Of a DNA stretch of 64,000 nucleotides, positions 21,260-40,440 are shown in pieces (positions within the stretch are counted from its first letter, which is position 1; the number at the start of each line of letters is the position of its first letter). A program made the translations under genes and the position numbers. Source of the DNA: a phage; the sequence record PZ534511.1; one strand, written 5' to 3'. Under the pieces are notes generated by a model. That model searched no databases. It saw only the letters and a program-made list of their open reading frames with translations, and was not told the origin of the DNA.

Positions 21260-21577
21260 ATGCAAATTGAGATCACTGGCAACGTAGAAATCACCGAAGG
21301 TATGGTGTCTTTCATTTCCCACAAAATGTCAAAACTGGAGCGTCTACATCCTTCTGTAAATCATGCACGTGTAAGTGTAAAAGTTGAAAATGATCACCAG
21401 GAAGTTATGGCGTTCATTTTTGACACTTCTGGAAAAGAAGTTATTGCCAAAGCTAAAGGCAGTGATGCTTACGAGGCAACTGACCGTATGGTAGATGTTG
21501 CAGCACGTCAGCTGGCTAAATGTGGTGGAAAGAAAGGTAAAGGGAAAGGAAAAGTAAAGATTGACTTTGGAGAATGA
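21260..21577 (+). CDS. hpf: ribosome hibernation promoting factor / RaiA family protein
   Basis: MQIEITGNVEITEG...KLE...VSVKVEN...GSDAYEATDRMVDVAARQLAK closely parallels E. coli HPF (MQLNITGNNVEITEA...DMYAAIDGLIDKLARQLTK), recalled from memory. Confidence 0.8.
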   Translation: MQIEITGNVEITEGMVSFISHKMSKLERLHPSVNHARVSVKVENDHQEVMAFIFDTSGKEVIAKAKGSDAYEATDRMVDVAARQLAKCGGKKGKGKGKVKIDFGE

Positions 21578-26523: not shown

Positions 26524-26732
26524 TCAACACACATGCATCTGAAGAGACATCCGAAGGAGTGACCATATGTCCCTTGGATGAGCCAGTTAAAGAGGAAAAC
26601 TTAGATTCTGAGGACTCTTCATCTTCGTCCCAGACAGATCCTGAGGCTGATGACCTGACGTGGGAGGACATCGTAGATATCTGGTTCTCTATTATGCCTG
26701 AGCACGAAGAGTTCAGAGGTGGTAGACTATGA
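26520..26732 (+). CDS. hypothetical acidic protein
   Basis: ORF; Ser/Asp/Glu-rich. Confidence 0.4.
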   Translation: MINTHASEETSEGVTICPLDEPVKEENLDSEDSSSSSQTDPEADDLTWEDIVDIWFSIMPEHEEFRGGRL

Positions 26733-26771: not shown

Positions 26772-27982
26772 CCTGAAGAGGCAAACGTGTATAATTCTTG
26801 TGCATTGGAACGTATAAAACCCTGTTCACACTCTCATTCCCAGAGGAGATTTTATGAAGATAGAAATATTTGGTGGGGCTGACAACACTCGTGGCCTGAT
26901 TTACCTTGAATTCGATGAATCATACCTGCCAGAGGTGTTAAATATAGACTCTGTTGCTGAGGCTTTGGGAGTAAACCCTAAAGAACTCCACTCTTGTGCT
27001 GAGATCGATGGTTGGGAAGAGACCATGAATATTGATTTCAGTGAAGTAGAGGATGAACCGCTGGACTGACACACAATTAGCTGCCCGGCTAAAGTGCTGG
27101 AAGCACCTATAACACATCTTTCAACTAAATTTCCTACCACCACAATCACTTACCTCCCACACATGACTGTTTGCTTGTTTAGTGAGCAGTCATGCCTTGA
27201 CATTCTTGCCTATCCTGATAAAATTAAGTTCTTCTCTTTTCTTTTACCGAGTAATTCGGGTTTTCTGTTCTCTTCGGTTTGAAGGGGTATGGAGATACAC
27301 CTGAGTGAACAGGGTGAACAACCGAACCATTGGCTATGGCATTAGCATGGCGAAGCGGACGGGTGACGAAAGAGTGGCCGGAGGACACCAGTCACTGCCA
27401 TATGATATATGGGTGATAACCTGAAGAGTCTGAATAAGTGTTTAAGTACCAGTCAGAGGAAAAGGTGAATGGTAGCCGAAGGGGGAGGGGGGTTTCTTGT
27501 ATCTTTAATTTGTATATTATGTATACACTTGTAAACCAATCTCATCTGAATCTGTTTACCACACAAGGCGGATAGAGACAAATATTACCTATTAAACTTG
27601 AATTATTTATAGAAAATACCACAACACCACTTAAGTCTTTGATTTTACACACAAATCTTACAGATATTCAGCCTCCCTATTTAACATACCTGTAACATAT
27701 TCCATACTCTACCTGTCTGATCAATTTACTCCCACCACATCCCCACATTTTCCTTGTCTGTACTACCCCTGCCCCGCCGGGAGTCCCGTCATATCTGGCT
27801 TTCCAGCAAATATCACACCCACAAATATCATTGCCTGAAGAGGGTTTCATCCCATAACACATGCCTTACCTGAAGAGCGCTTCATACACCACGTAAATTT
27901 TTTAATTGACCTCCCCTTCCCCGCCGGAGAGGTTGGCTTTTCCCACACAGACCTGAAGAGTCAGCCAGAAATATCTGAAGAG
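26772..27982. repeat. six dispersed copies of 9-mer CCTGAAGAG (one TCTGAAGAG)
   Basis: copies at 26772, 27420, 27834, 27869, 27952, 27974 on the same strand. Confidence 0.6.
26854..27069 (+). CDS. hypothetical acidic protein
   Basis: ORF with GGAG RBS. Confidence 0.45.
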   Translation: MKIEIFGGADNTRGLIYLEFDESYLPEVLNIDSVAEALGVNPKELHSCAEIDGWEETMNIDFSEVEDEPLD

Positions 27983-28610
27983 GGTCTAGTTCTGCCCTGT
28001 CATGAGCGGTAGCGACTGGAGTGCTGCCAGGCGGACGAAATGGGAATACTTCTCATTCTTATAATAATTCTCAAATATCGAGGCAGTGAGGCAAATTAAT
28101 AGGTGAGGCCGTTCACACAGTGGCACAACATTTGCAACCTATCTTGTGGGGGTGAATGAGAATACCTATCATTGTGAGAATAGTTATCATTACGGGCAAT
28201 TTAACATAATACCCATTATGCGCACCACTGGCGATACATACAGGGATTGATAACATGAGTTACAGTTTACGCATATAACAATCATATTTCTTACTATTTG
28301 TGTGGGATATAGTTAGCAGCCAATAGATTAGATATTGACCTGCAGACTTCCAACCGTCTAGACGTCTAAACGCCCACACAACAAGGATTATACATACATC
28401 GCTGAATGTAAACAGGGCCGCAAAAATGCTACCATACCAGTTTGTAAATTTTTCATGCAGCACTTGACAAAGAGGAGAAAAACTTGTCTGACACACCGGA
28501 CACAATATGGCACAATAACGACTGTTATTATTTCATGTTTCACTGTTCACGTATAGATTGTTCCCGCATAGACTGTTTACACCTTGACAGTTTACACAGA
28601 TATGATAAGC

Positions 28611-28860
28611 CATGACATTCGTTTGCATGAAAACAATTAGCAAGTTAACAATTAACAAGTTAATAATATATGACATAATATAAAAGCAGGGCAACTATTA
28701 GCAGATCTATAGTTGCCTTGCTTGTTATGTCATGATTAACTAAATACAAGGCAACTATGATCTGATTAATAGTTTGCAGACAAACTATCACGGGGGTGAT
28801 GGTTACTGCTTTTATATTATGTCGCGACTCCGTCGCGCCATGCCATTCGTTTGCATAGTT
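28611..28860. repeat. cluster of inverted and direct repeats (candidate origin or regulatory site)
   Basis: 18-mer CATGMCATTCGTTTGCAT x2; 21-bp inverted pair at 28668/28807; AAGGCAACTAT and its complement x4. Confidence 0.55.
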
Positions 28861-29470
28861 GCCTTATTGTTACAGGTAAAACAATTACATTATTAATTAT
28901 TTCTTATCTTTCTGTTAGTCATCTAATGATTCCAGTTAGTATAGTAACGTACAGTAAACATTAGACGACTAAAGATTTCTCTGCTTATGATAACTTGCCG
29001 TGACAATTTCGGACTGTTTACGAAAAATGTTGACACCTGAGCTGATTTATGTTATGCAATTTAAACGAATAATTATTTTATGCAGGTATTGACTATTCCG
29101 TTATTCTATGGTTGGAATAAATACTTAGCAAGCTATAGAATGGTGAGCGTACGTAAATTCTGAAATCTGGCGGCTATAGTTATACTCGATTTTTCGCATA
29201 GGACACGCTTTCGATGTTGTGTAAGTGTATGACTTATAAGAATTTTTATTTGTTGACAAGATATTGAAGATATGCATCAGGTTAAAATTTATGCAATAGC
29301 GGCATTACGTGCAATTTTGGGAGAGAAAACGGGCAAAAATGGCCTTGCTACCACACAATGAAAAATTATGCAATAGTTATTTTCCATGTATATTTGTACA
29401 GTGTGTGGGATTAATAGCTAGTCAATTATTCCACTTGCCAGGTAGGGCCGTTTATGGTAGGAGAAGAGCA

Positions 29471-29498
29471 GACAAAAAGAAAGGGGCCTAAGCCCCTT
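29471..29498 (-). terminator. rho-independent terminator for the minus-strand gene block
   Basis: GGGGC-uuag-GCCCC hairpin followed by U-run on minus strand, just after stop of 29517 gene. Confidence 0.55.
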
Positions 29499-29516
29499 GA
29501 TAATTCAGTTAAAAAA

Positions 29517-29936
29517 TTATAATGATTCGTATATTTCAAAAATCCGATTTGCCAGGTCGTTACGGTAGCGGAATTTTTCCTCACGTTTGATCATAAGATC
29601 TTTATAACCGTACTCTTTAAGCACTTCATTAACTTTATGGCGGCATACTTTCATATTATCCTGCGCGTCACCAATAAATCTGTTGCTATGGTGCATGGCT
29701 TTAATTTCTTCTTCCAGGACCAGGGCAACTATGCGGACCGGATCAAGCTGATAGGCGGTAACATCCATGCGGCATTGTAGACGGCTTTTAACGTCCGCCA
29801 CCGGATATACTGCAACCTCTTCCCCGTCAACATTGACAATAATTAGTTTACCATCGATTTCGAATCCTTTCGCCGCCGGACCGTGACAAAAAGCGTTATC
29901 AAAGCTATATGCCGGATTATCAGATTTAATGTTCAT
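29517..29936 (-). CDS. hypothetical protein
   Basis: ORF with GAGG RBS. Confidence 0.5.
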   Translation of the reverse strand: MNIKSDNPAYSFDNAFCHGPAAKGFEIDGKLIIVNVDGEEVAVYPVADVKSRLQCRMDVTAYQLDPVRIVALVLEEEIKAMHHSNRFIGDAQDNMKVCRHKVNEVLKEYGYKDLMIKREEKFRYRNDLANRIFEIYESL

Positions 29937-30081
29937 GGTGTTTTTTACCTCTCAGTTAATTTTCTTACAACTTCCCTTCAAAAAAGAATATAGCAAAACT
30001 GCCGATCCCTGTCAACCAAGGATAGCATAATTTTTATGTGATCAAGGGGCTTTATTGCCCCTGACCATGTAACTTGTTGTA

Positions 30082-30347
30082 TTATTTGTTGCTCATCCAG
30101 TTTTCCCAAGCTGCCTGATAATCTGCCTCACTACGGCGGATCTCTTCTTGCTCTTCAAGCCGGATCTCTTCTTCCAGGTACCCCAGGATATCGGATTTTT
30201 TGGTCTGGCGTAGCATCCAGTCATCTTTTTTGCGAGTAAAGATCTTATAAGCTTTCTCGCAAACCTCTTTTTTGCTACCTTTTTGGACTTCAAGAATTCT
30301 GTAGGCCATGTACTGAACTAATTTAAGCTGATCCAGACGTTTCATGA
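30082..30347 (-). CDS. hypothetical protein
   Basis: ATG preceded by AAAGAGGAAAACATC cassette. Confidence 0.45.
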
Positions 30348-30423
30348 TGTTTTCCTCTTTATGTGGTTCGTTTTGATTAGTTGATAATACAGCAGTTCGC
30401 AGATCAGTTTTTAGCAATTCATG

Positions 30424-30642
30424 CTATTTACTCACAAGGGTGTCGAAAACAAATTTTTCTTTATTGTCTAAACTCACGTATCCGATTCGACCACGCAAGC
30501 CGCAAGTAGTGCCGTACTCGTAACCATTAAGGCCTTTAACCTTCCAATCCGTACCCATTAAAACCGCATTATATTCCTGACCAACTACAAAAGCGCCCCC
30601 AGTCGATTCAATGCAAACAACTTTAATTTTACGGGTTGTCAT
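30424..30642 (-). CDS. hypothetical protein
   Basis: ORF with GGGAGAAAG RBS and upstream hairpin. Confidence 0.45.
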   Translation of the reverse strand: MTTRKIKVVCIESTGGAFVVGQEYNAVLMGTDWKVKGLNGYEYGTTCGLRGRIGYVSLDNKEKFVFDTLVSK

Positions 30643-30702
30643 TTTCTTTCTCCCTTTGTGTGGTTCTGATTAGTGGGCCTTTTGGCCCGTGTCATTATCT
30701 TA

Positions 30703-30978
30703 TTACTTACGGCGGCAGAATTCAAGCGTTTTTAATTGATAATCTTCCTCAGCCTGGAGTACAACCGCCTCGATCATTTCGTTGGCATTGTTGAAGCCAT
30801 ATCCTTTAGCGAATTCATCCGCACCACCTTCGTGATCATGTTCTGCGTTCATCGCTTCCACGAAATGGAATTCAAGATTATTGAGATAAGGGCTTGATGT
30901 TCCGTCCTCTTTTTCGATGAGATCCCAAATAGCATTAAAACGTGATTCAACTTCTTGGTTAATCCAGCTTAACATGGC
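30703..30978 (-). CDS. hypothetical protein
   Basis: ATG with GGAAGAGAGG RBS. Confidence 0.45.
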   Translation of the reverse strand, partial: AMLSWINQEVESRFNAIWDLIEKEDGTSSPYLNNLEFHFVEAMNAEHDHEGGADEFAKGYGFNNANEMIEAVVLQAEEDYQLKTLEFCRRK

Positions 30979-31187
30979 GTTTTCCTCTCTTCCGGTTGTT
31001 GTGTGGGCGCTTTTGCCCCCTTCGAGATAAATGCTACCCCACCACCTGGCAGATGTCAACGGTTTTTATAGTTTTTATATAGCAGGCACACCCGGTGATT
31101 GTCTCCCCCTGTCGCCAGGTGCCTGCCGTGAAACAAGTATAACAAAAAACAGGACCATTGCAAGCCCTGTTTTGTAGTTTATAAATA

Positions 31188-31379
31188 TTATATTTTTTCG
31201 CCTATGTAGTCCGGTCGGTTTTTCTCTGTCATGCGCTTTAGCAATTCTTGCATGTTGCTTATGGCTTGCAGTGTATCCCCTTCCAGACTTGAATCAACAT
31301 AATCAGGATCGTCTATAACCTTTCTATGATTATGATAACGCAGTACCGCCAATACCTTTCTAACTTGTTCGATATTCAT
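31188..31379 (-). CDS. hypothetical protein
   Basis: ORF. Confidence 0.4.
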   Translation of the reverse strand: MNIEQVRKVLAVLRYHNHRKVIDDPDYVDSSLEGDTLQAISNMQELLKRMTEKNRPDYIGEKI

Positions 31380-31391
31380 TTTTACCGCTCT

Positions 31392-31526
31392 TTAAAACAA
31401 GGTGCCAACCGTTTCCAATAGATCACTGACTACCAGGACAATACCGATCAGCACATACCTAACCATAAGGGGAAAGAGCGCCAATATTGCCACCACAATC
31501 CCCAAGGTGATGATTATCTTTCTCAT
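31392..31526 (-). CDS. 44-aa hydrophobic micro-protein (below ORF-track cut-off)
   Basis: MRKIIITLGIVVAILALFPL... TM-like. Confidence 0.3.
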   Translation of the reverse strand: MRKIIITLGIVVAILALFPLMVRYVLIGIVLVVSDLLETVGTLF

Positions 31527-31528
31527 GG

Positions 31529-31813
31529 TTAACGGTTTACGTAAGCTTTACCGTTTACGGTGATGGGCAGATCTTCCAGGTCTGGATCTTCCTTAAGGTC
31601 GCGAGCAAGCTCACCGCACCGGACACCCTCGAATCCGTAGTACTCTGTTGTGCCGTCCTTAAAAGTTTTAGTGGCAAGGCATAAGCGATAAGTAACCCCG
31701 ATTCGATTGACGGCATGAATATCCGTTAGATTAACCTCTTTTGCCAGCTCTTTGGCCATTACAGGCGCATTAAGTCCAACAACTAGGGCAACCACTGCGA
31801 TCATCTTTTTCAT
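31529..31813 (-). CDS. putative secreted protein (signal peptide)
   Basis: MKKMIAVVALVVGLNAPVMA signal-peptide-like N-terminus. Confidence 0.5.
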   Translation of the reverse strand: MKKMIAVVALVVGLNAPVMAKELAKEVNLTDIHAVNRIGVTYRLCLATKTFKDGTTEYYGFEGVRCGELARDLKEDPDLEDLPITVNGKAYVNR

Positions 31814-31904
31814 TGTGTCTATCCTCTTTCTGCTACGTTTAAGGCGGCGGTAACCGCCTGTTTATGCTTTGTTGGTTAATTTTCGGGTATCGGTATAAAT
31901 TAAA

Positions 31905-32120
31905 CTATGCTGTACGCTCAACTATAACAACGGTTTGGGGGATCTCACCTTCCACCACTAATAAGGCCTTTTTCTGCGTGATGGATATCTTTACCCGTTG
32001 CAGCGTGGCGGTGAAGTCTTTCATTTCGTCACGTGGTGTTTTAGTGCAATACCAGATCTCAGGCTTGCCGATCTGTAAGTTGCGTAAAAATTCTGTTTTG
32101 CCTGTTTTGTTAGTGATCAT
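31905..32120 (-). CDS. hypothetical protein
   Basis: ORF. Confidence 0.4.
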   Translation of the reverse strand: MITNKTGKTEFLRNLQIGKPEIWYCTKTPRDEMKDFTATLQRVKISITQKKALLVVEGEIPQTVVIVERTA

Positions 32121-32129
32121 TTGCCAACC

Positions 32130-32234
32130 TCACCCGATACCGTTGGAAGACAAGATCATATTAGACATGGTTGCAATCAGGCCAATACCCAGGGCAATAG
32201 CTAGGATCACCGCATCAATTAATTTCTGTTTCAT
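32130..32234 (-). CDS. 34-aa hydrophobic micro-protein (below ORF-track cut-off)
   Basis: MKQKLIDAVILAIALGIGLIA... TM-like. Confidence 0.3.
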   Translation of the reverse strand: MKQKLIDAVILAIALGIGLIATMSNMILSSNGIG

Positions 32235-32324
32235 CTTGTTTTCCTCTTCTTGTTCCAGGTGGCGGACCATTCCACCGCCTTATGTATTATGCTTTGTAAG
32301 ATGGTTGTTTGTTTTCAAACTATT

Positions 32325-32504
32325 TTAACGATAATCATCGTACGCTTTATTAACCTGGCGAATATAACATTCAAAAGCCAGATCAATAGATTTATATTCA
32401 CGGATATACTCACCATAGGAAACCACATACATTTCTATAGCTTCCTCATATGCGAGGAGAATAGAATCCAAGCCTACGATCTCAGTCTTTGCAATAATAG
32501 CCAT
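32325..32504 (-). CDS. 59-aa hypothetical protein (below ORF-track cut-off)
   Basis: ATG preceded by promoter-hairpin-RBS cassette. Confidence 0.35.
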   Translation of the reverse strand: MAIIAKTEIVGLDSILLAYEEAIEMYVVSYGEYIREYKSIDLAFECYIRQVNKAYDDYR

Positions 32505-32551
32505 GATTTTTATCCTCTTTGTGGTTGGTGGGGCTTGCCCCTTTGATTTAT

Positions 32552-32579
32552 ATACTACAGTCTTATATGGTCATGTCAA
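32552..32579 (-). promoter_or_regulatory. sigma70-like promoter (minus strand TTGACA-16-TAGTAT)
   Basis: hexamers read on minus strand, followed by GC hairpin and RBS. Confidence 0.5.
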
Positions 32580-32689
32580 CTATTTTCAAAAAATTTTTCT
32601 GCTGTGATATTTTTCCCGGTAGGGTTCGCTACTTTCAAAATTCTATCATGCACCGGACGCCCAAAAGAATAAGCGCCGTACACAGTAAA

Positions 32690-32809
32690 CTAATAATCGC
32701 CGTCAGGTTGTACTATTACCGCCGCATAGGGTACGCCTTTTTCGTTATTGCTGACAAAATAGATCACGTTGCCATTAATAGCCTCGGTGCGTTTAATTTG
32801 TTCCATCAT
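32690..32809 (-). CDS. hypothetical small protein
   Basis: ATG with AAAGAGAGG RBS. Confidence 0.35.
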   Translation of the reverse strand: MMEQIKRTEAINGNVIYFVSNNEKGVPYAAVIVQPDGDY

Positions 32810-32864
32810 GATGATTTGCCTCTCTTTATTTTCATAATTGGGGGCCTTTTCGGCCCCGCCAGGT

Positions 32865-33149
32865 TTATTTGTTGATAGCATGCAGCGGGAAAGGTACGCC
32901 AGGTTGATAGATAACTTTTACAACCTCATCAGGACAAAAGAAGTTGCAGAACTCACCGCAATAGGCCTCATCCTCTTTTAGCTCTTCATCGACATACTCA
33001 AAAAAGTAGTCGATGCTTGGATAATCCTGACCGGGATTATAGTCAACCATTGTCAGGACTAGTTCAAGATCGTTGCGTAGGATATGCATACCCGCTTTTA
33101 AGTATTTTGCTTCCATTTCTACTACATCGCCAACGGTAACAATAGCCAT
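32865..33149 (-). CDS. hypothetical protein
   Basis: ORF with GGAG RBS. Confidence 0.45.
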   Translation of the reverse strand: MAIVTVGDVVEMEAKYLKAGMHILRNDLELVLTMVDYNPGQDYPSIDYFFEYVDEELKEDEAYCGEFCNFFCPDEVVKVIYQPGVPFPLHAINK

Positions 33150-33374
33150 GGTTTTAACTCCTATCTATCCGGTTAATGATTGGGGGCCGCCCCCCTGACA
33201 CGTCCTATTATCCATATTGTAGGGCTTGATGCAAGTACTTCTTTAAAAATTTTTTAAGCGCCTTGGGGGCCGCTGTAGCGCCAAAATAATAAAGGCCATG
33301 CAACCGCATAGCCTTTATGTGATTATATCGCTGCAGGCCCTGCCATGGGCCTTATTTTGCATCATTTGCTGGAA

Positions 33375-33674
33375 TTATTCAGAGAAAACATCGTTCACAA
33401 TAGCGATCACAATGCCGCCCACCTTGTCACGGTCAACAATGCACAAATCACCATAGATCATGTGGTAGTCTGGATGATCTTTCACGGAATAGTCAATGAG
33501 TGTCTTCTTATCGTCCAGCTTTTTGACTTCCATGGTCATTGTAATGAATTGATCGTTAAATGCACTATTGCGGAAGATCATTACCTGGCCGCCTTGACAT
33601 CCAGTGATCTCAACTTCCACGCCGTCTACGATCTGACCATCAAAGAAATAAAGATTATTGGCGGGTATAAACAT
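33375..33674 (-). CDS. hypothetical protein
   Basis: ATG with AGGAG RBS. Confidence 0.45.
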   Translation of the reverse strand: MFIPANNLYFFDGQIVDGVEVEITGCQGGQVMIFRNSAFNDQFITMTMEVKKLDDKKTLIDYSVKDHPDYHMIYGDLCIVDRDKVGGIVIAIVNDVFSE

Positions 33675-33718
33675 GATCATTGCTCCTTTTTGCACTGATT
33701 ATTTTAACAGGGTTTAAA

Positions 33719-33763
33719 TTTACTTTATTGATGGTCCTGGAGTCAAGACCATCTAAAAATAAA
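33719..33763. repeat. 45-bp palindromic element, copy 1 of 3
   Basis: TTTACTTTATTGATGGTCCTGGAGTCAAGACCATCTAAAAATAAA. Confidence 0.7.
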
Positions 33764-33765
33764 TT

Positions 33766-33966
33766 TTACAGGCCTACAATCTCTTTGATTCGTTTAACTG
33801 CTGCCTCAGCGCCTTGGGGGTAGAAATTATGATAACCAATCACGCGGGTAATACTGATCGCCACCTGATGATCTTCATAATACCCCTTGAATATTTCTTG
33901 ACCATCAACCAGCACAGCAATTTTTTCTTCTTTTTTGAAGTTAATAACGCGGATATTGTTGCTCAT
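33766..33966 (-). CDS. hypothetical protein
   Basis: ATG with AAAGGAGAAAC RBS. Confidence 0.4.
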   Translation of the reverse strand: MSNNIRVINFKKEEKIAVLVDGQEIFKGYYEDHQVAISITRVIGYHNFYPQGAEAAVKRIKEIVGL

Positions 33967-34110
33967 TTTGTTTCTCCTTTTGGAACTTTGTCTATGTGGT
34001 GGGGGAGTGTCTCCCCGTTGATTGTTATTATCCATATTCTGGACCGGATTGCAACACCCCGGAAGAAAAATTTTTTGAAAAGTTAGGCCCCCAGGGATCG
34101 GGGGCCGTTA

Positions 34111-34230
34111 TCAGGTGCGTACAGCGATAAAATACATCCCTACGCCTAACAATATTTCAAGGGCGATGATCTCCAGCCATACCATAACACGGCGCGCCTT
34201 ATCGGTGCGGGGCTTATCCTTGGGTGTCAT
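34111..34230 (-). CDS. 39-aa hydrophobic micro-protein (below ORF-track cut-off)
   Basis: AGGAGGAAAGGGGGG RBS; TM-like C-terminus. Confidence 0.35.
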   Translation of the reverse strand: MTPKDKPRTDKARRVMVWLEIIALEILLGVGMYFIAVRT

Positions 34231-34250
34231 CGTCTCCCCCTTTCCTCCTG

Positions 34251-34472
34251 TTAGTAGTGACGTGGTTTGCAATGGCCCCCAGGAGTATTATCACCACGCA
34301 CATTACAAGAAAAATTATCTCTGTCGTTGTTCGATCCATTGTTATAAAATTCCTTAAGATCAGGCCTGAAAATAAAGCTTTCATTATTGAATCCATCCCG
34401 CCAGGCGGCTGGCCTCAAATCTTCACTAAATGGATTAATTAACGTGGTATTATTTAAACGGCTGGCCCACAT
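34251..34472 (-). CDS. hypothetical protein (frame ambiguous with overlapping 34214-34339 TM peptide ORF)
   Basis: two overlapping ORFs in different frames; cannot decide by eye. Confidence 0.25.
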   Translation of the reverse strand: MWASRLNNTTLINPFSEDLRPAAWRDGFNNESFIFRPDLKEFYNNGSNNDRDNFSCNVRGDNTPGGHCKPRHY

Positions 34473-34821
34473 ATTTTCTATTCCTCTCAAATAAGCGATC
34501 CGCCTCAGTTAAACAAATCTCATGGGCGTGATCTCTGGTTTTAGCTTCATCGAAAACCTGTTGTGCAAGGCTGCAACGTAGGGAGACTGGAAGATCACTA
34601 TAATAGGCGTTGACAAACGTTTGAGCGTCGTACAGGTCTGAAAATACTTTACCCTTTCTATTATTCCCCTTGTCAACAATTGCAAGGATAACCAATACAA
34701 TAGTTGCAACCACCCCCAGGAAAATAGATATAATAAACCATAAAAAGGCGGATCTTCCCATCTTGCCAGCGATCCAGGCGTTAAACAAGGCAACCAATAC
34801 AGCCAAAATAATAAATTCCAT
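34450..34821 (-). CDS. membrane protein
   Basis: two hydrophobic helices; ATG with AAGAGG RBS. Confidence 0.45.
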   Translation of the reverse strand: MEFIILAVLVALFNAWIAGKMGRSAFLWFIISIFLGVVATIVLVILAIVDKGNNRKGKVFSDLYDAQTFVNAYYSDLPVSLRCSLAQQVFDEAKTRDHAHEICLTEADRLFERNRKYVGQPFK

Positions 34822-34885
34822 TCTATGTACCTCTTTTACAGTTCTGATTAACAATAAGGCGGCAAATATGCCGCCTGTTACCTGA

Positions 34886-35266
34886 TTAAAAATTATCGCC
34901 GTAAATCTTTCCGCTTTCTACCCATACCACCACGCGAGGCATACTATCCCACACGTCTTGTTTTAGATTGAGCGCGTGCAATTCTTCGGTGGTGCTCATA
35001 CCGGGCACGGGCTGATTGTATACTGCAAAACGACCACCCGCATAATCATAGGCTAGAGTTAAATCACACTGGATCATCTTTTTGATCATGGCATTAAGCA
35101 TGGCGTTAGCCGCATACTGATCACGTTTTAAAGGCAACTCTTTGATTAGTTTGCGATAGTTTTCGATATGGTCGCACACTGTTTCACGCGGAAGATCTTT
35201 CATATCCTCGCGAAAGGTAACCAGGTTAAACATAACGGTGTCAATAGCTTTAGTAGTGTTTTTCAT
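34886..35266 (-). CDS. hypothetical protein
   Basis: ATG preceded by promoter-hairpin-RBS cassette. Confidence 0.45.
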   Translation of the reverse strand: MKNTTKAIDTVMFNLVTFREDMKDLPRETVCDHIENYRKLIKELPLKRDQYAANAMLNAMIKKMIQCDLTLAYDYAGGRFAVYNQPVPGMSTTEELHALNLKQDVWDSMPRVVVWVESGKIYGDNF

Positions 35267-35320
35267 GATGTTTTCCTCTTTGTTTTGTGTGGGGGCAAAC
35301 GTCTTGCCCCCTTGAGTTTT

Positions 35321-35348
35321 AATATAGCAGGTTTTTAGGTTATTGCAA
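35321..35348 (-). promoter_or_regulatory. sigma70-like promoter (minus strand TTGCAA-16-TATATT)
   Basis: hexamers on minus strand followed by GGGGGCAAG...TTGCCCCC hairpin. Confidence 0.5.
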
Positions 35349-35356
35349 CACTTTAT

Positions 35357-35980
35357 TTATGAAAAAGTCATCTCGCCATCTTCATCCACATCAAACCGCC
35401 AATCATTGGCCTCGATAAGGCCGATCAGGTTTTCGGTAGTGAATTGTTCAAGATAGGCCCCCTCCAGGTCTACGTAAACCTTGCGGGATAGCTCCCGTAC
35501 CGTCTCGGTGATCAGCTCTTCCAGGTCTTCCACTTTGTTTTCTTGTTTGGCGGTCAGATCTAGCCAGGTGGTATCAATGTATCCGCTTACAGTGTTTTCA
35601 TGGCTGTAATGGCTGTACTTGTCGCGTTCAACACTGGCTGATAACTCGCCATCGTGCATTGTGCCGAACAAGTGACGAATTGATCGGAACTTGGTCAGGG
35701 CCTTTACTTTACGCAAAAATTTTTCTAAATCCACGTTTTCAGCACTGATTGAAGCGCCGTCACCCTGGCACCAAAAGCCGGACCAATGTACTTCGGTATC
35801 TTCAAGGCCGTACTCTGGAAAGATATATTCTTTGTAGTGTTCAATTACACTTTCTGCAAAAAAGTCATCCCCGCTGTGTTCTTCTCTTTCGCGTACCATT
35901 TCAATGGCTTTTTCTTTTTGTTCGTCGGTCAGCACGTCGAAAGATAAATTGTAACCTGTGGTAATGTTAACGGTGGTCAT
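35357..35980 (-). CDS. hypothetical acidic protein
   Basis: 207-aa ORF; no confidently recognised motif. Confidence 0.5.
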   Translation of the reverse strand: MTTVNITTGYNLSFDVLTDEQKEKAIEMVREREEHSGDDFFAESVIEHYKEYIFPEYGLEDTEVHWSGFWCQGDGASISAENVDLEKFLRKVKALTKFRSIRHLFGTMHDGELSASVERDKYSHYSHENTVSGYIDTTWLDLTAKQENKVEDLEELITETVRELSRKVYVDLEGAYLEQFTTENLIGLIEANDWRFDVDEDGEMTFS

Positions 35981-36037
35981 GATATTTTCTCCTGTTTTCT
36001 TTGTTAGTGGCGGGAAGTTTTCCCGTTTACGTGTTTA

Positions 36038-36065
36038 AGTATACTTATCAAGATTTACTTGTCAA
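36038..36065 (-). promoter_or_regulatory. sigma70-like promoter (minus strand TTGACA-16-TATACT)
   Basis: hexamers on minus strand followed by CGGGAAAACUUCCCG hairpin and RBS. Confidence 0.55.
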
Positions 36066-36315
36066 CACTATTTTTTAAATTATTGTGGCGCAAAATGTTT
36101 AAAATCTCCTCAACGTCATCAACACGGCGGCAATTTTTAAACGCTACCAATTGCCCCATGATTTTAATCACTGGGCGGCCTTGCCAGTGCCCCTGGAGAA
36201 AGCGCGCCTTGACTTTATCGGTGGAACTATCACGCCACCAAATAGCCTTGTTGTTGCAGTAGTAAAAATTATTCAGGACAACATCAACTTTATCAAAATT
36301 TTTTAATTTACGCAT
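36055..36315 (-). CDS. hypothetical protein
   Basis: ORF with AAAGGAG RBS. Confidence 0.4.
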   Translation of the reverse strand: MRKLKNFDKVDVVLNNFYYCNNKAIWWRDSSTDKVKARFLQGHWQGRPVIKIMGQLVAFKNCRRVDDVEEILNILRHNNLKNSVDK

Positions 36316-36496
36316 GGCGTTTACTCCTTTCTCTCTTTGATGTGGTTAGTATAGCTAACCTGTTGACGATGTCAATGATATTTTTAACGCCATAAAACGG
36401 CCTTGGGCGATGTTTTCAGGTTAAAGGGGGCGATTGCATAGGTGGGGGCCTTTTTGGCGCTTACAGGGCCAACCAGGGGCGCTATTCGTAGGATAG

Positions 36497-36525
36497 AAAT
36501 AAAAAGCCCCGCACAATGGCGGGGC
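36497..36525 (-). terminator. rho-independent terminator (minus strand)
   Basis: GCCCCGC-cauugu-GCGGGGC hairpin followed by UUUUUAUUU on minus strand. Confidence 0.55.
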
Positions 36526-36533
36526 GTTGGTTG

Positions 36534-36734
36534 TTATTTGTCTTTATGGCGGTATCGTTCTGCCTGTCGTTCACGTTCCAAAAGTAGGCCGGGCAATTTA
36601 CGATCATAATGATTACGCCAGATCTTCCCAAACCTTTTTGGCTTATTCAGTTTATTGTTACGCTGGCGGCGTTCTGGCAGCTCTTCGGAATCATGAGGGC
36701 GCTTTACAATTTTCTCGAAATTAATTTTCATATA
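36534..36734 (-). CDS. small highly basic protein
   Basis: Arg/Lys-rich; ATG with AAGGGGGG RBS. Confidence 0.4.
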   Translation of the reverse strand, partial: YMKINFEKIVKRPHDSEELPERRQRNNKLNKPKRFGKIWRNHYDRKLPGLLLERERQAERYRHKDK

Positions 36735-37077
36735 TTCCCCCCTTGCTAACTTCAATATTGGCCTGAATAGCCCGGATACGGCGCTTTATAACTTCCTGAT
36801 CTGTGTGATCGTATCCCCAAAAGTCTACAATTTTTGCGCCCCCAGCCTTTAGGCGGTATAGTGTTTCCTGCATTTTGTAAGCCGGGATCGGTCGCGGTGT
36901 TACCTGGTCGCCCTTCTCATTCTTGTACTTGATAATGTAGTCTTCATTGTCGTTGAATACCCAAAATGGGTATTCTGTGAGCGCGTTGCTCTCTTTTTCG
37001 TTTTTAGATTGGATCTTGTTTACAATTAAAGCCGTAGCAATAGCGCCAATAATAAAACTTGCCCCGCTGATCATGTA
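36721..37077 (-). CDS. membrane-anchored protein
   Basis: N-terminal TM helix; AAAGGAGA RBS. Confidence 0.45.
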   Translation of the reverse strand, partial: YMISGASFIIGAIATALIVNKIQSKNEKESNALTEYPFWVFNDNEDYIIKYKNEKGDQVTPRPIPAYKMQETLYRLKAGGAKIVDFWGYDHTDQEVIKRRIRAIQANIEVSKGGIYEN

Positions 37078-37149
37078 CTTTCTCCTTTCATTGTGTTGAT
37101 AAACTGTCTTTATAGATGGCCCTGCTACCAGGACCACCGAAAAAACAGC

Positions 37150-37395
37150 TTATTTGACGATACCGACAAAACAGATCCCGCCTTCCCCTATATAGGCAAT
37201 ATCGGTAATTTTATAATTTGTCAAGATCCGCGTGTTCAGATCATTAATAAAATCGGTCATCGCGTTGGTGTAGTTGTCTTCCGTGTCTAAGGCATAATCC
37301 CAGGTGTAAACCTTTTTACGTCCGAAGCCTTTTACCATGATACGGGCGCTTTTGGTGTTGGTGGGCGCATAATATTTTGTGATTAGTGCTGCCAT
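37150..37395 (-). CDS. hypothetical protein
   Basis: ORF with GAGGAG RBS. Confidence 0.45.
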   Translation of the reverse strand: MAALITKYYAPTNTKSARIMVKGFGRKKVYTWDYALDTEDNYTNAMTDFINDLNTRILTNYKITDIAYIGEGGICFVGIVK

Positions 37396-37435
37396 GGTTT
37401 TAACTCCTCATTAGTTCAGTGTTAACAGTGTAAAG

Positions 37436-37480
37436 TTTACTTTATTGATGGCCCTGGAGTCAAGGCCATCTAAAAATAAA
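37436..37480. repeat. 45-bp palindromic element, copy 2 of 3
   Basis: TTTACTTTATTGATGGCCCTGGAGTCAAGGCCATCTAAAAATAAA. Confidence 0.7.
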
Positions 37481-37482
37481 TT

Positions 37483-37824
37483 TTACTCGTTTTCTTCCAG
37501 CTCTGAAAGCTCTTCTTTCATTTCTTCCAGCTCTGTCTGCAATTCCTGGTATTCTTCATCGTCCTCAATATCCAGGCTGTCGATGTAGTCGCTAAATCCG
37601 CAGCGGTAAGCGATAGGATCTAACTCCTTGAGGATACGCGACGGAAGAAAAGAAATGTTTCCGATCATAATTTCGCCGTAGATCTCGTCTAACCATTCAT
37701 CATAGTTTTCGTCGTACTTGTCCTCGTCGATTTCAAAGTTATCGATCTTATTCTCAAGGTCTGCGATCTGTTTTTTCAGTTCAGCGATCTGCATAGCTTT
37801 TTCTGCGGCGGTCATAGTAGTCAT
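37483..37824 (-). CDS. acidic coiled-coil protein
   Basis: Glu/Asp-rich heptad-like sequence. Confidence 0.45.
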   Translation of the reverse strand: MTTMTAAEKAMQIAELKKQIADLENKIDNFEIDEDKYDENYDEWLDEIYGEIMIGNISFLPSRILKELDPIAYRCGFSDYIDSLDIEDDEEYQELQTELEEMKEELSELEENE

Positions 37825-37875
37825 GGTGTTTTTCTCCTTTTGTGTATTCTGGGAAGTTTTCCCGTTTATGTGCTT

Positions 37876-37903
37876 ATTATATCGATTTAAGTTAGCTTGT
37901 CAA
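37876..37903 (-). promoter_or_regulatory. sigma70-like promoter (minus strand TTGACA-16-TATAAT)
   Basis: consensus hexamers followed by GGGAAAACUUCCC hairpin and AAAAGGAG RBS. Confidence 0.6.
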
Positions 37904-38023
37904 TTAAAAGTTTAAGAAAAATTTTGCGACACCGTTGGCGCTACCCATCAACATTTGCGCCAGGATGTACCCAATGATGCAAACGATAATAGTTACCTTT
38001 GTGTGCTGGCGTGTAGTACTCAT
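37904..38023 (-). CDS. 39-aa hydrophobic micro-protein (below ORF-track cut-off)
   Basis: GAAAGGGGGG RBS; TM-like. Confidence 0.35.
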   Translation of the reverse strand: MSTTRQHTKVTIIVCIIGYILAQMLMGSANGVAKFFLNF

Positions 38024-38057
38024 CTTTAAGCCCCCCTTTCCGCTCAACTGTGGTTAG

Positions 38058-38102
38058 TTTACTTTATTGATGGCCCTGGAGTCAAGGCCATCTAAAAATA
38101 AA
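38058..38102. repeat. 45-bp palindromic element, copy 3 of 3
   Basis: TTTACTTTATTGATGGCCCTGGAGTCAAGGCCATCTAAAAATAAA. Confidence 0.7.
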
Positions 38103-38103
38103 C

Positions 38104-38499
38104 TCAGTAAGTTTTCAGTACTTTCCCGTCCAACCTGTCTAACTGAATCTCAATAGCTGCAGAAAACCTATTGTAAACCACATCGCCCAGGGAGTCCAGC
38201 CAATCTATGACGTTATACACCTGCTCTTTATTCTTGCAAGTCCGGATCCGTTTCATTACGTAAGACGGATCAATATTAGCGCTCTCGTTGTTGTGGTCAT
38301 GCGCCTGGCCTGCTGCGCTAGTTATAGATTTTACAACCACCTGAAAGGGCTTTAAGGTGCCTTTTGCGTTCATCTCACGCGCTTTCGCGGCGCGGTTGTT
38401 GTATGTTACACAACGGTGGCAAATGTTGACCAAATGCATATCAATAATTTTTTCATCGTTTGCCAGTTCGTTCATGATGCGGCGTACGTTCTTATTCAT
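38104..38499 (-). CDS. hypothetical protein
   Basis: ORF preceded by hairpin and AAAGGAAAAAAG RBS. Confidence 0.45.
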   Translation of the reverse strand: MNKNVRRIMNELANDEKIIDMHLVNICHRCVTYNNRAAKAREMNAKGTLKPFQVVVKSITSAAGQAHDHNNESANIDPSYVMKRIRTCKNKEQVYNVIDWLDSLGDVVYNRFSAAIEIQLDRLDGKVLKTY

Positions 38500-38583
38500 G
38501 ATCTTTTTTCCTTTGTGTTGGCGGGAAACATTCCCGCCTTTTGTGTATAGTTTACTTGAATTTTGCAGCGTGTCAATAATTTT

Positions 38584-38982
38584 TTATTCGTGGGCACATG
38601 TTACAATGTGTTTTTTATAGCCCAGGTGGTCAGCAAGTGCCGACAAAAACTCTTCTTCGTAGATCCAGCCGTCGGCAGTGATCCCCATAGCATTTAATGC
38701 GCCCTCAAGTGCTGCGTTAGCTTTATCGTAACCGTGACCGCTCGCCTTGCCGCCAGTATAACCGTACTTATTGTTCTTGTTGTCGTGAATCCAAAACACG
38801 CAGTAGTGAGTGTTCCCGCTGGCGGCGGCATAATACCGGATCTCAGCTACTTCGTGCAAATTATTGTCATCGTCCAGGCCCACCAGATTATAAGCCTTGT
38901 AAAATCCACGATCACGGCGGCAGTTCTTGACATCAGAAAAAGAAAAGTCCGCATTATCAAAATTAAAGGTAGTGGTTTTCAT
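38584..38982 (-). CDS. hypothetical protein
   Basis: ORF with AAGAGGA RBS. Confidence 0.45.
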   Translation of the reverse strand: MKTTTFNFDNADFSFSDVKNCRRDRGFYKAYNLVGLDDDNNLHEVAEIRYYAAASGNTHYCVFWIHDNKNNKYGYTGGKASGHGYDKANAALEGALNAMGITADGWIYEEEFLSALADHLGYKKHIVTCAHE

Positions 38983-39046
38983 GATTTTATCCTCTTAGTG
39001 TCTTTTGTGCTTTTAGTGTATTTGGTGTCGGACTATATGTCAATAC

Positions 39047-39244
39047 TTATTTTTTATTAAACCAGTGGTTGATCTGTCCTTTTGTCAGGGCGCAACGATC
39101 AAGCTGTTGCAGGGTATAGCTATGACCGCGACGAAATTTATAAAGGCCTTGCCCGTTGTTAATGGTTACATCCACCCGGCAAATCACTTGATTGGTGACC
39201 ACCTGGCGAGTGTTGCGACGTACTTTGATCCCGTATGCGTTCAT
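39047..39244 (-). CDS. hypothetical small protein
   Basis: internal ATG with AAAGAGGA RBS. Confidence 0.35.
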   Translation of the reverse strand: MNAYGIKVRRNTRQVVTNQVICRVDVTINNGQGLYKFRRGHSYTLQQLDRCALTKGQINHWFNKK

Positions 39245-39325
39245 AAATTTATCCTCTTTACTGGTTAGTGCGGTGTTGTTCACCTTGTAGGGTAATAATA
39301 CCATGATTAACCTTGTTGTCAACGA

Positions 39326-39502
39326 CTATTTTAAATTATTTTTATGATAGAATCCACCTGCCGCCCCCCGCCAGGTTAACCACCATTTTTTTTCGTACTC
39401 TTCTTTATGTTCCAACGCTCCCGCCATAACCTTTTCAACCAGGGCGATAGCTTCCGTATCATTAATCACTACATTTCCCAGGCGAGTAGCATTACCTTTC
39501 AT
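39326..39502 (-). CDS. hypothetical small protein
   Basis: internal ATG with AGAAGAGG RBS. Confidence 0.35.
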   Translation of the reverse strand: MKGNATRLGNVVINDTEAIALVEKVMAGALEHKEEYEKKWWLTWRGAAGGFYHKNNLK

Positions 39503-39610
39503 TTTTGTACCTCTTCTGTAGCTGTTTACTTTATAGTGCGGACCTGCCAGGCTGGCCCCGCCAGGTTGCAACGGTTAGCGCATCAGGTTAGAAAAATTTT
39601 TTGAAAAGTG

Positions 39611-39639
39611 TTGACAGCGGCCCCGCCAGGCGGCATAAT
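39611..39639 (+). promoter_or_regulatory. plus-strand sigma70-like promoter (TTGACA-17-CATAAT) inside the minus-strand block
   Basis: hexamers preceded by A/T-rich tract; points into noncoding repeat region. Confidence 0.5.
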
Positions 39640-39959
39640 ATACCTATCGAAAGGACGGCAGGCACCGGTGACGGGGGAGACAACCACCGGGGATGGGCGC
39701 TTCATAAAATGAGAACGGTTATCATTATCATTTAAAAATTTATGCAAAAAATCCTTGCCTTCTTTGTCCTGTGTGATACTATAATAACAAGCCGGGGCAG
39801 CAGGGGCCGGGAGACAATCACCGGGCCTGCCCGTTATTCTGCAAACGAGAATAATTATCATTCAAAATTCTAAATAAGAATCCCTCGCATTTAATAAATT
39901 TAATTAGCATGCTAATTACCCTCCGTAACAATTTCCTATAAAACAGTGCCCCATAAAAT

Positions 39960-40440
39960 ATTCCCATATAGAAATTTTAAAAATCCATTTCTGAAAACGA
40001 AAAATAGATTTCGTCCCCAAAAATTTCAGGTCGAGATCCGGAACGATTTCCAGAAAATCCGATTCAGAAAACGAAAAACAGATCGAGTACTGAGAAATTT
40101 ATCGAGAAAAATTTTCAGAAAATCCAAGCCCTGGAATGAAAAGTAGATCGAGTACCTGGAAAGCTGCACCGCAACTTCAAGATAGTGGTTAGATTGTTAC
40201 CATAGAAGGTCAAGGGTAAGTGGAGGAAGTTCTAGTAGAGGGAGGTTAGCATGTGTGGGAAATCTATAATGGTGGTCTGGAATATGGTGCAAACGATAGG
40301 ATGAGCTATTCAGCTTGTCGCGCCTACTCTGAAAAATCCATTTTAGTTTTCGATCCATTTTCTGATTTTCTAAGAATTTTAAAATATCCAGCCCGGTGAA
40401 ATATCAAAAGGAGGAAATCCATTTTAGAAATCCCCCTTAT
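39960..40440. repeat. degenerate tandem and dispersed repeats in noncoding DNA
   Basis: recurring TTTCAGAAAATCC, GAAAACGAAAAA, AGATCGAGTAC and AAATCCATTTT words. Confidence 0.55.

Follow-up and report, generated by a model that had tools for sequence, protein, structure and literature searches.

Why should the same 16-nt word stand in two distant noncoding regions of a lytic phage genome? The question is raised by a stretch of 64,000 nucleotides from the phage sequence record PZ534511.1 (the window; positions count from its first base). Four copies of the word had been noticed there, a tandem pair at 28158 and 28176 and two copies 11.5 kb away at 39711 and 39847, and the original prediction took them for a shared operator or replication-protein binding site, or for a 3' end conserved among related small RNAs. 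The window is 91-95% identical to rV5-like lytic coliphages (genus Vequintavirus) and 94-97% identical, in reversed orientation, to the complete genome of phage naswa. We find that the word belongs to a 19-bp palindrome with the sequence of a Fur box, that the palindromes are clustered in two control regions, and that they are conserved. Our reading, to which we give a probability of a little over 60%, is that the motif is a box for the host Fur protein, the iron-sensing repressor known as ferric uptake regulator, and that the phage arrays in two gene-free regions would bind it.

The 19-bp palindrome and its two loci

All four copies were confirmed at these positions, on the + strand. Three of them (28176, 39711 and 39847) are exact copies of the proposed consensus GAGAAYNNTTATCATT; the copy at 28158, GAGAATACCTATCATT, is one base off, with C where the consensus requires T. 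The pair at 28.1 kb is indeed tandem, with a spacing of 18 bp, and the copies at 39.7 and 39.8 kb each lie, as had been seen, 3' of one of two paralogous GC-rich units, which have the core GGAGACAAYCACCGG in common. Is the word more frequent than expected? This is the point on which the prediction had been staked, and 100 dinucleotide shuffles of the window served as background. Exact GAGAAYNNTTATCATT was found 3 times versus 0.01 expected, and with at most two mismatches there were 7 matches versus 1.6 expected; neither count was reached in any of the shuffles.

The 16-mer is only a part of a dyad, because phage PVP-SE1 holds the perfect palindrome AATGAGAAT-G-ATTCTCATT. The complete element is a 19-bp imperfect palindrome, AATGAGAAT-N-ATTMTCATT (AATGAGAATnATTMTCATT), with the 7-1-7 core TGAGAATnATTMTCA. 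Beyond the four copies already noticed, there are further ones at 28039-28057, 28057-28075 (weak), 39714-39732 (overlapping at +6) and 39873-39891 (degenerate). The boxes are listed below with the repeat that holds the first four. No strand is assigned to any of these features, and counts of consensus positions are out of the 18 positions of the 19-bp dyad.

28030-28488: direct terminal repeat, 459 bp, with four boxes, placed by alignment to the Gotham repeat_region
28039-28057: Fur-like box a, AATGGGAATACTTCTCATT, 16 of 18 positions, 10 bp from the left genome end
28057-28075: weak box b, TCTTATAATAATTCTCAAA, 13 of 18 positions, 18 bp after box a
28155-28173: Fur-like box c, AATGAGAATACCTATCATT, which holds the 16-mer at 28158
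28173-28191: Fur-like box d, TGTGAGAATAGTTATCATT, which holds the 16-mer at 28176
39708-39732: box e, AATGAGAACGGTTATCATT, plus the +6 overlapping copy AACGGTTATCATTATCATT; 39711-39729 on the - strand reads GATAATGATAACCGTTCTC
39844-39862: box f, AACGAGAATAATTATCATT, 17 of 18 positions, 'box 1' of the conserved module, which holds the 16-mer at 39847
39873-39891: degenerate box g, AATAAGAATCCCTCGCATT, 14 of 18 positions, 29 bp after box f

The first locus lies within a 2.6-kb gene-free gap between convergent gene blocks. The experimentally defined terminal repeats of phage Gotham are 459 bp long (PMC7471380). Because the first base of the Gotham genome, and with it the annotated 459-bp repeat_region, aligns ungapped to window position 28030, the terminal repeat can be placed at 28030-28488, with the tandem motif pair inside. 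Its boxes form two pairs, each spaced 18 bp, and the pair c and d is annotated as a repeat_region in two Danish records, navn and naswa. In box b the right half ATTCTCA is perfect and the left half is poor, and it is doubtful that this box is a genuine site. The second locus is a gap of 1 kb without genes, within the block of leftward early genes, where a module of promoters, GC-rich units, boxes and iterons occupies 39611-40162.

Does the palindrome act as DNA or as RNA? Among 26 boxes the two half-sites drift independently, without compensation: positions 6 and 14 read G/A in 13 boxes and G/C in 10, and in no box do they read T/A. This is the behaviour of a protein site and not of a hairpin.

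A probable Fur box and its conservation

Which protein would recognise such a dyad? The core differs by a single symmetric base from TGATAATnATTATCA, the 7-1-7 consensus for Fur, and the full dyad agrees with its 19-bp 9-1-9 form. The phage palindrome is identical to the consensus published for Xanthomonas campestris Fur boxes, AATGAgAATcATTctCATT (PMC1790865), and the Fur boxes TGAGAATGATTCTCA and TGAGAACGATTCTCA of E. faecalis (PMC6056675) are equal to it; the classical Gram-negative iron boxes GATAATGAGAATCATTATT and TGTAATGATAACCATTCTC contain the half-sites GAGAAT/ATTCTC (PMC10665472). Compared with the classical 19-bp consensus GATAATGATAATCATTATC, the - strand of 39711-39729 agrees at 16 of 19 positions, the best match of the window. 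The same site is ranked first in the 64-kb window by a matrix built from 10 classical iron boxes (listed in PMC10665472), at 21.6 bits, the maximum of 100 shuffles being 16.8. Scores in the window are 21.6, 14.6, 13.3 (box d, among the top matches) and 13.2 bits, and genuine iron boxes score 6.2-18.5 bits when each is left out of the training in turn. Seven of the top nine window matches of this matrix fall in the two loci.

The comparison was also made in the reverse direction, with a matrix trained on phage boxes only and scanned over 40 kb of E. coli K-12 (600-640 kb). The six best matches, at 11.5-16.3 bits, are at fepA|fes, fepD|entS and fepB|entC, all footprinted Fur operators (PMC2189734), and the next best scores 6.3. 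The coordinates agree with those of Chen et al. 2007 after the version shift. In E. coli, chromosomal Fur clusters typically overlap by 3 or 6 bp, and 83% of them overlap promoters (PMC2189734). Copies overlapping at +6 are present in the phage at 39708/39714 and in most module boxes, the chief spacing being 29 bp or 18 bp. No Fur homologue was found in these phages by tblastn, thus any Fur-family binder would be that of the host. Judged by eye, the consensuses of the other E. coli regulators ArgR, IHF, DnaA, Zur, KdgR and Fis fit worse than Fur.

If the boxes are bound by a host factor, are they kept in other phages? The 138.6-kb naswa genome was scanned with a matrix built from boxes of other genera. 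It has 8 matches of at least 12 bits versus 1.0 expected, 7 of the 8 in the two loci, and 4 matches of at least 19 bits versus 0.02 expected; the homologues of boxes a, c and f score 23.1, 19.5 and 23.5 bits. Five of the seven matches in 50 kb of PVP-SE1 lie in its own 2.2-kb gene-free gap between convergent blocks, and one lies in the module; BLAST of this gap against rV5 gave no alignment. A 311-bp query from the second locus is 75-86% identical to other genera and to another subfamily, solely around the 39847 copy (window 39808-39898). Outside the rV5-like phages the conserved module opens with a strong rightward promoter and a structured unit of about 95 nt ('unit A'). Next come another rightward promoter and unit 2, then two to four palindromes, and lastly iterons. 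Between genera, box 1 has a mean pairwise identity of 0.91 and box 2 one of 0.79, versus 0.60 for spacers and 0.39 for the downstream DNA. Module and boxes are common to two subfamilies, Vequintavirinae and Stephanstirmvirinae, whose iterons diverge, and the box consensus is the same in phages of Escherichia, Salmonella, Klebsiella, Enterobacter, Cronobacter and Pectobacterium. Boxes that stay constant as spacers and iterons drift are what a shared, conserved host factor predicts. The 29-bp phasing in the module is found in all six lineages with more than one box; besides the window, it was seen in anhysbys, EC152, KP12, PcCB7V and PBES02. A pattern scan of IMG/VR was set aside, since 16 of its 19 matches were chance occurrences inside coding sequence.

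Conservation of the first locus must be read in another way. The terminal-repeat block is nearly invariant among relatives, with diverging flanks, and is found in 118 phage records at 90% identity or more. Box a is unchanged in 10 of 11 Vequintaviruses, and the sole variant shifts toward the consensus. Because the whole terminal repeat is so conserved in this genus, constraint on boxes within it is weakly informative.

The promoter module and the rival explanations

The remaining features of the second locus, and a related unit elsewhere in the window, are as follows.

39611-39639, + strand: promoter P1, TTGACA-17-CATAAT, 11 of 12 consensus matches; rightward, against the flanking - strand genes
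39646-39707, + strand: GC-rich unit 1, core GGAGACAACCACCGG at 39676-39690; leader of the P1 transcript, paralogous to unit 2 and to the unit at 31.1 kb
39755-39785, + strand: promoter P2, TTGCCT-16-TGnTACTAT / TATAAT, read from the sequence; rightward
39789-39843, + strand: GC-rich unit 2, core GGAGACAATCACCGG at 39810-39824, then the conserved YTATTCTGCAAAY
39836-39865, - strand: candidate weak leftward promoter, TTGAAT-18-CAGAAT, 8 of 12 matches, with box f in its spacer
39962-40162, + strand: three iterons of about 62 nt, each around AAATCCNATTYNGAAAACGAAAAAYAGATCGAGTAC, at spacings of 74 and 65 bp; two of these copies contain GATC
31082-31163, - strand: third GC-rich unit paralogue (core GGAGACAATCACCGG; hairpin 31082-31126), without a box after it

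A sigma-70-like promoter stands 60-63 nt upstream of box 1 in most other genera examined; the distance is 56 nt in W70, and none was resolved in anhysbys. The hexamers TTGAAT/CAGAAT of the leftward promoter are kept in 11 of 13 phages and its score is below the threshold of the promoter scan, and we treat it as a putative promoter only. In other genera the repeats at the iteron position have a different sequence, and most of them contain GATC. The region 39962-40162 is likely a replication origin. Two further copies of AAATCCATTTTAG lie beyond the iterons (40334-40346 and 40415-40430). The GC-rich word CCCCGCCAGG occurs three times, at 39355-39375, 39541-39570 and 39618-39634, upstream of P1 and in the spacer between its -35 and -10 hexamers, and also in the spacer of promoter A of W70.

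Several points weigh against host Fur as the binder. The whole case rests on sequence, and the iron-box training list has only 10 boxes and is second-hand, taken from a methods section (PMC10665472). In 24 of the 26 boxes the left half-site reads GAGAAT, but T is the preferred base there in classical E. coli boxes (8 of 10), and this oriented asymmetry could point to a different protein. Spacings of 29 bp and 18 bp are unlike the overlaps of 3 or 6 bp in chromosomal Fur clusters. The boxes overlap no strong gene promoter, versus 83% of E. coli Fur clusters: P1 and P2 are 52-100 nt upstream of boxes, and only the weak leftward promoter spans box f. Within the genus, extra constraint on the terminal-repeat boxes is borderline, with p = 0.05 for core positions and p = 0.11 for whole boxes in an underpowered comparison. 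Finally, growth cannot be strongly blocked by Fur binding, since these phages form plaques well on rich media that are replete with iron.

Could a protein of the phage itself bind the boxes? The main rival explanation is a phage-encoded dimeric protein, not of the Fur family and with Fur-like specificity, for example a small early protein, that controls the rightward promoters, the origin region and the terminal repeat. It would account for the constant left half-site with its asymmetry, for the odd phasing of 29 and 18 bp, and for a promoter-to-box distance fixed at 60-63 nt, and dozens of small early proteins of unassigned function are encoded around the locus. However, the iterons, which would be expected to co-evolve with a phage protein, differ entirely between genera and the boxes do not. 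Over 40 kb of E. coli the box matrix picks genuine Fur operators and gives no false positive, a remarkable coincidence if the protein were another one. The tblastn search found no Fur-family gene in these phages, and no candidate protein was identified. We consider this explanation unlikely.

A second rival explanation takes the boxes for replication or packaging sites, bound by an initiator or a terminase common to genome end and origin. One cluster, within the terminal repeat, is indeed just 10 bp from the physical end of the genome, and the other adjoins the iterons. But the module cluster is 11.5 kb away from the genome end, the lineage-specific iterons and the CTGAAGAG-type repeats, recurring in the PVP-SE1 gap, are better candidates for such sites, and identity with the consensus of a host repressor would be left without explanation. 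The replication-protein site of the original prediction is not the best fit: the true iterons adjoin the boxes at 39962-40162 and are genus-specific, whereas the boxes are alike in all genera. Direct repeats co-varying with the lineage-specific initiator are what iterons would give; the boxes are dyads with one consensus in all genera, though nonetheless situated in an origin-like region. On balance this explanation is distinctly improbable.

Is the motif instead a part of RNA, the 3' end or a hairpin of small RNAs made from P1 and P2? The strong promoters stand directly before GC-rich units, the motif follows each module unit on the same strand, and an AU-rich hairpin could be formed from the palindrome. 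Against this, neither a GC-rich unit nor a strong promoter precedes the four copies in the terminal repeat, the third unit has no motif after it, and a terminator (U-tract) sought 3' of the motif was not found. Positions 6 and 14 are never compensated in the 26 boxes, and Rfam 15 gave no match in the window at the gathering threshold and, at a permissive E <= 1, nothing relevant for the module and three distant loci. An RNA-level role of the motif is therefore very improbable, and the small-RNA 3' end is a part of the original prediction that finds no support. What is supported is the shared operator, now a dyad with independently varying half-sites that matches a known operator class, the Fur box.

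As for a chance AT-rich word or a functionless remnant of neutral local duplication, the high conservation of the whole terminal repeat does make box conservation within the genus say little, but 3 exact matches versus 0.01 expected, the genome-wide clustering, boxes kept across subfamilies between randomised spacers, and their recurrence in the unalignable PVP-SE1 gap effectively refute it.

What, then, are the GC-rich units? The third unit lies directly 3' of a sigma-70 promoter, TTGCAA-16-TATACT (31136-31163), homologous to one annotated in rV5 as P168, and a second promoter follows. As the third unit has no box, unit and box are separable elements. Each of the three units is preceded by a sigma-70 promoter that reads into it, and the same three copies are present in all Vequintaviruses examined. 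The units appear best described, from their sequence and position, as promoter-proximal leader elements. The hairpin GCAGGCAC…GTGCCTGC of the third unit has z = -3.4, and this unit may be a leader hairpin, a put-like antiterminator or a 5' stabiliser. Single-sequence folds of the units were mostly no better than those of shuffles, the fold of unit 1 being weakly better (z = -1.2). RNAalifold gave no consensus structure for unit 2, and the strand test of the outer helix was weak, with 55 of 64 cells paired on one strand versus 50 of 64 on the other. Given no consensus fold, weak folds and a weak strand test, a tRNA or sRNA reading of the units was rejected; G-rich units that form R-loops were rejected as well, the G/C skew of unit 2 being inconsistent across genera. 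The putL and putR elements of HK022 are promoter-proximal antiterminator RNAs. The units, though not the boxes, resemble them as paralogous structured leaders after strong promoters, in several copies per genome; they differ in that neither sequence nor Rfam shows a similarity and covariation gives no support, and the analogy may serve as a lead only.

In the genera other than the rV5-like phages, unit A follows a strong promoter at the position occupied by unit 1 in rV5-like phages; it is absent from the window. It was seen in PVP-SE1 (L006:1321-1418), with homologues in L004, L007, L027, L029, L031, L032 and L008. Of the 17 pairs in its consensus fold 5 are compensated, and its G·U pairs are valid on the promoter-sense strand only. 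The complementarity of its loop to downstream sequence co-varies (CCCC/GGGG versus CTACCA/TGGTAG), and it matches no Rfam family. Judging from these patterns, unit A is a candidate for a new phage noncoding RNA.

Other repeats surround the first locus. CTGAAGAG has 16 copies in the window versus 5 expected, at 27835-27982 and also at 26539, 26773 and 27421, with four copies crowded into 150 bp immediately to the left of the terminal repeat. The PVP-SE1 gap has similar repeats, CCTGAAG(A/T)G and CCTAAAGAG. Repeats of this type may be a packaging or end-recognition signal. A terminal-repeat stretch of about 30 nt, TTTAACATAATACNCNTTATNCGCACCAC (28200-28232), is kept in the otherwise unalignable PVP-SE1 gap (L038, about 21436-21465). 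Three further kinds of site are not above chance: the perfect palindrome TTAGCATGCTAA just 3' of the module boxes, and in the gap SlyA-like TTAGCAAGYTA copies and a MetJ-like AGACGTCT (counts of 7 versus 2.6 expected and of 1 versus 0.6). Together they are at 39904-39915 (the palindrome), 28637-28662, 29125-29135 and 28360-28367. The 'attL/attR' of phage R7 proved to be an 80-bp assembly overlap and not a terminal repeat, and the ends of the EC152 record were uninformative. About 20 records named 'Campylobacter phage' (MG065659, MG065666 and others) are 93-97% identical to rV5-like coliphages, and such records are probably mislabelled or contaminant assemblies.

Known Fur boxes and the possible meaning for the phages

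How do the phage boxes compare with known systems? Chromosomal Fur boxes, such as those of E. coli iucA, fepA-fes and entC (GATAATGATAATCATTATC; TGATAATnATTATCA; AATGAgAATcATTctCATT), have the same dyad and length; copies overlapping at 6 bp occur among the phage boxes too, and these score in the operator range. The phage boxes differ in lying in gene-free DNA of a virulent phage, off iron-gene promoters, in arrays of 29 or 18 bp, with a left half that is nearly always GAGAAT, and they are predicted sites only. Temperate phages and prophages also carry host Fur sites on their DNA. The stx1 promoter is Fur-regulated. In lambdoid coliphages a Fur box lies upstream of sitABCD (PMC6969025). These cases have a single box on the promoter of an iron-related cargo gene, whereas here there are multi-box arrays in a lytic phage and no cargo gene. 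In the papers searched, the only Fur boxes described on phage DNA stand before cargo genes of prophages, sitABCD among them.

Other likenesses concern number, place and arrangement. In the Fur titration assay (FURTA), attributed to Stojiljkovic, Baumler and Hantke in 1994, multicopy Fur boxes are said to tie up Fur, so that its regulon is derepressed. A phage genome that replicates with some ten boxes would put the cell in the same situation, though the FURTA is a laboratory cloning artefact, and we know of no natural, selected Fur sponge. Sites for host factors are familiar in phage origins and ends, with IHF at lambda cos and P1 pac and DnaA boxes at P1 oriR. The boxes would likewise be host-protein sites by iterons and at genome ends, but those proteins are architectural or initiator proteins and Fur is a metal-sensing repressor. 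Lastly, PrrF1/PrrF2 and RyhB are Fur-controlled small RNAs with a box that overlaps the promoter. PrrF1 and PrrF2 resemble the module as two tandem paralogous short units, each with a Fur box; here, however, the boxes are downstream of strong promoters, there is no terminator, and the RNA is putative.

There is a further question, what would a virulent phage gain from Fur? The binding of Fur, and with it the iron gating and titration described here, is what we infer from the boxes. In an iron-replete cell, host Fur-Fe2+ dimers would occupy the box arrays. Their positions in the module would be +52 to +100, counted from P1 and P2, as well as across the spacer of the weak leftward promoter. Bound Fur would then be a roadblock or occluder, and noncoding transcription into the iteron (origin-like) region would become iron-dependent. 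Each packaged genome would carry about ten boxes or more, the terminal repeat being present twice, and amplified DNA could soak up Fur. Such titration would tend to lift the repression of iron uptake in the host, an outcome fitting for a phage with iron-dependent ribonucleotide reductases; the phage encodes NrdAB and NrdDG. In this scenario a virulent lineage of Enterobacterales phages (Vequintavirinae and Stephanstirmvirinae) would have recruited Fur as a cofactor, for iron-responsive early noncoding transcription or origin firing, and as a Fur sponge that feeds the ribonucleotide reductases. We offer it as a tentative proposal that may well prove wrong.

In the genome paper of rV5 the region is labelled merely 'non-coding', and the origin of replication was not located there. 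Our search of the literature on rV5-, PVP-SE1- and phAPEC8-like phages gave no report of Fur boxes, a replication origin, transcriptomes or these modules. What is new is thus a familiar operator in an unfamiliar architecture and place, in phages for which we found no Fur boxes reported. The modules would offer a first way into the function of the long 'non-coding' stretches in these phages, and with them a likely origin region, which the rV5 paper could not place, is located. Fur boxes have been known as promoter operators of iron genes in bacteria and in the cargo of some prophages. If the Fur reading is true, strictly lytic phages, among them therapeutically relevant relatives of rV5, PVP-SE1 and phAPEC8, would read or manipulate the iron status of their host. 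This would be a candidate natural case of transcription-factor titration by a replicating virus, and it would offer a concrete, cheaply testable idea of how the success of an infection varies with the iron available in the gut or in infected tissue.

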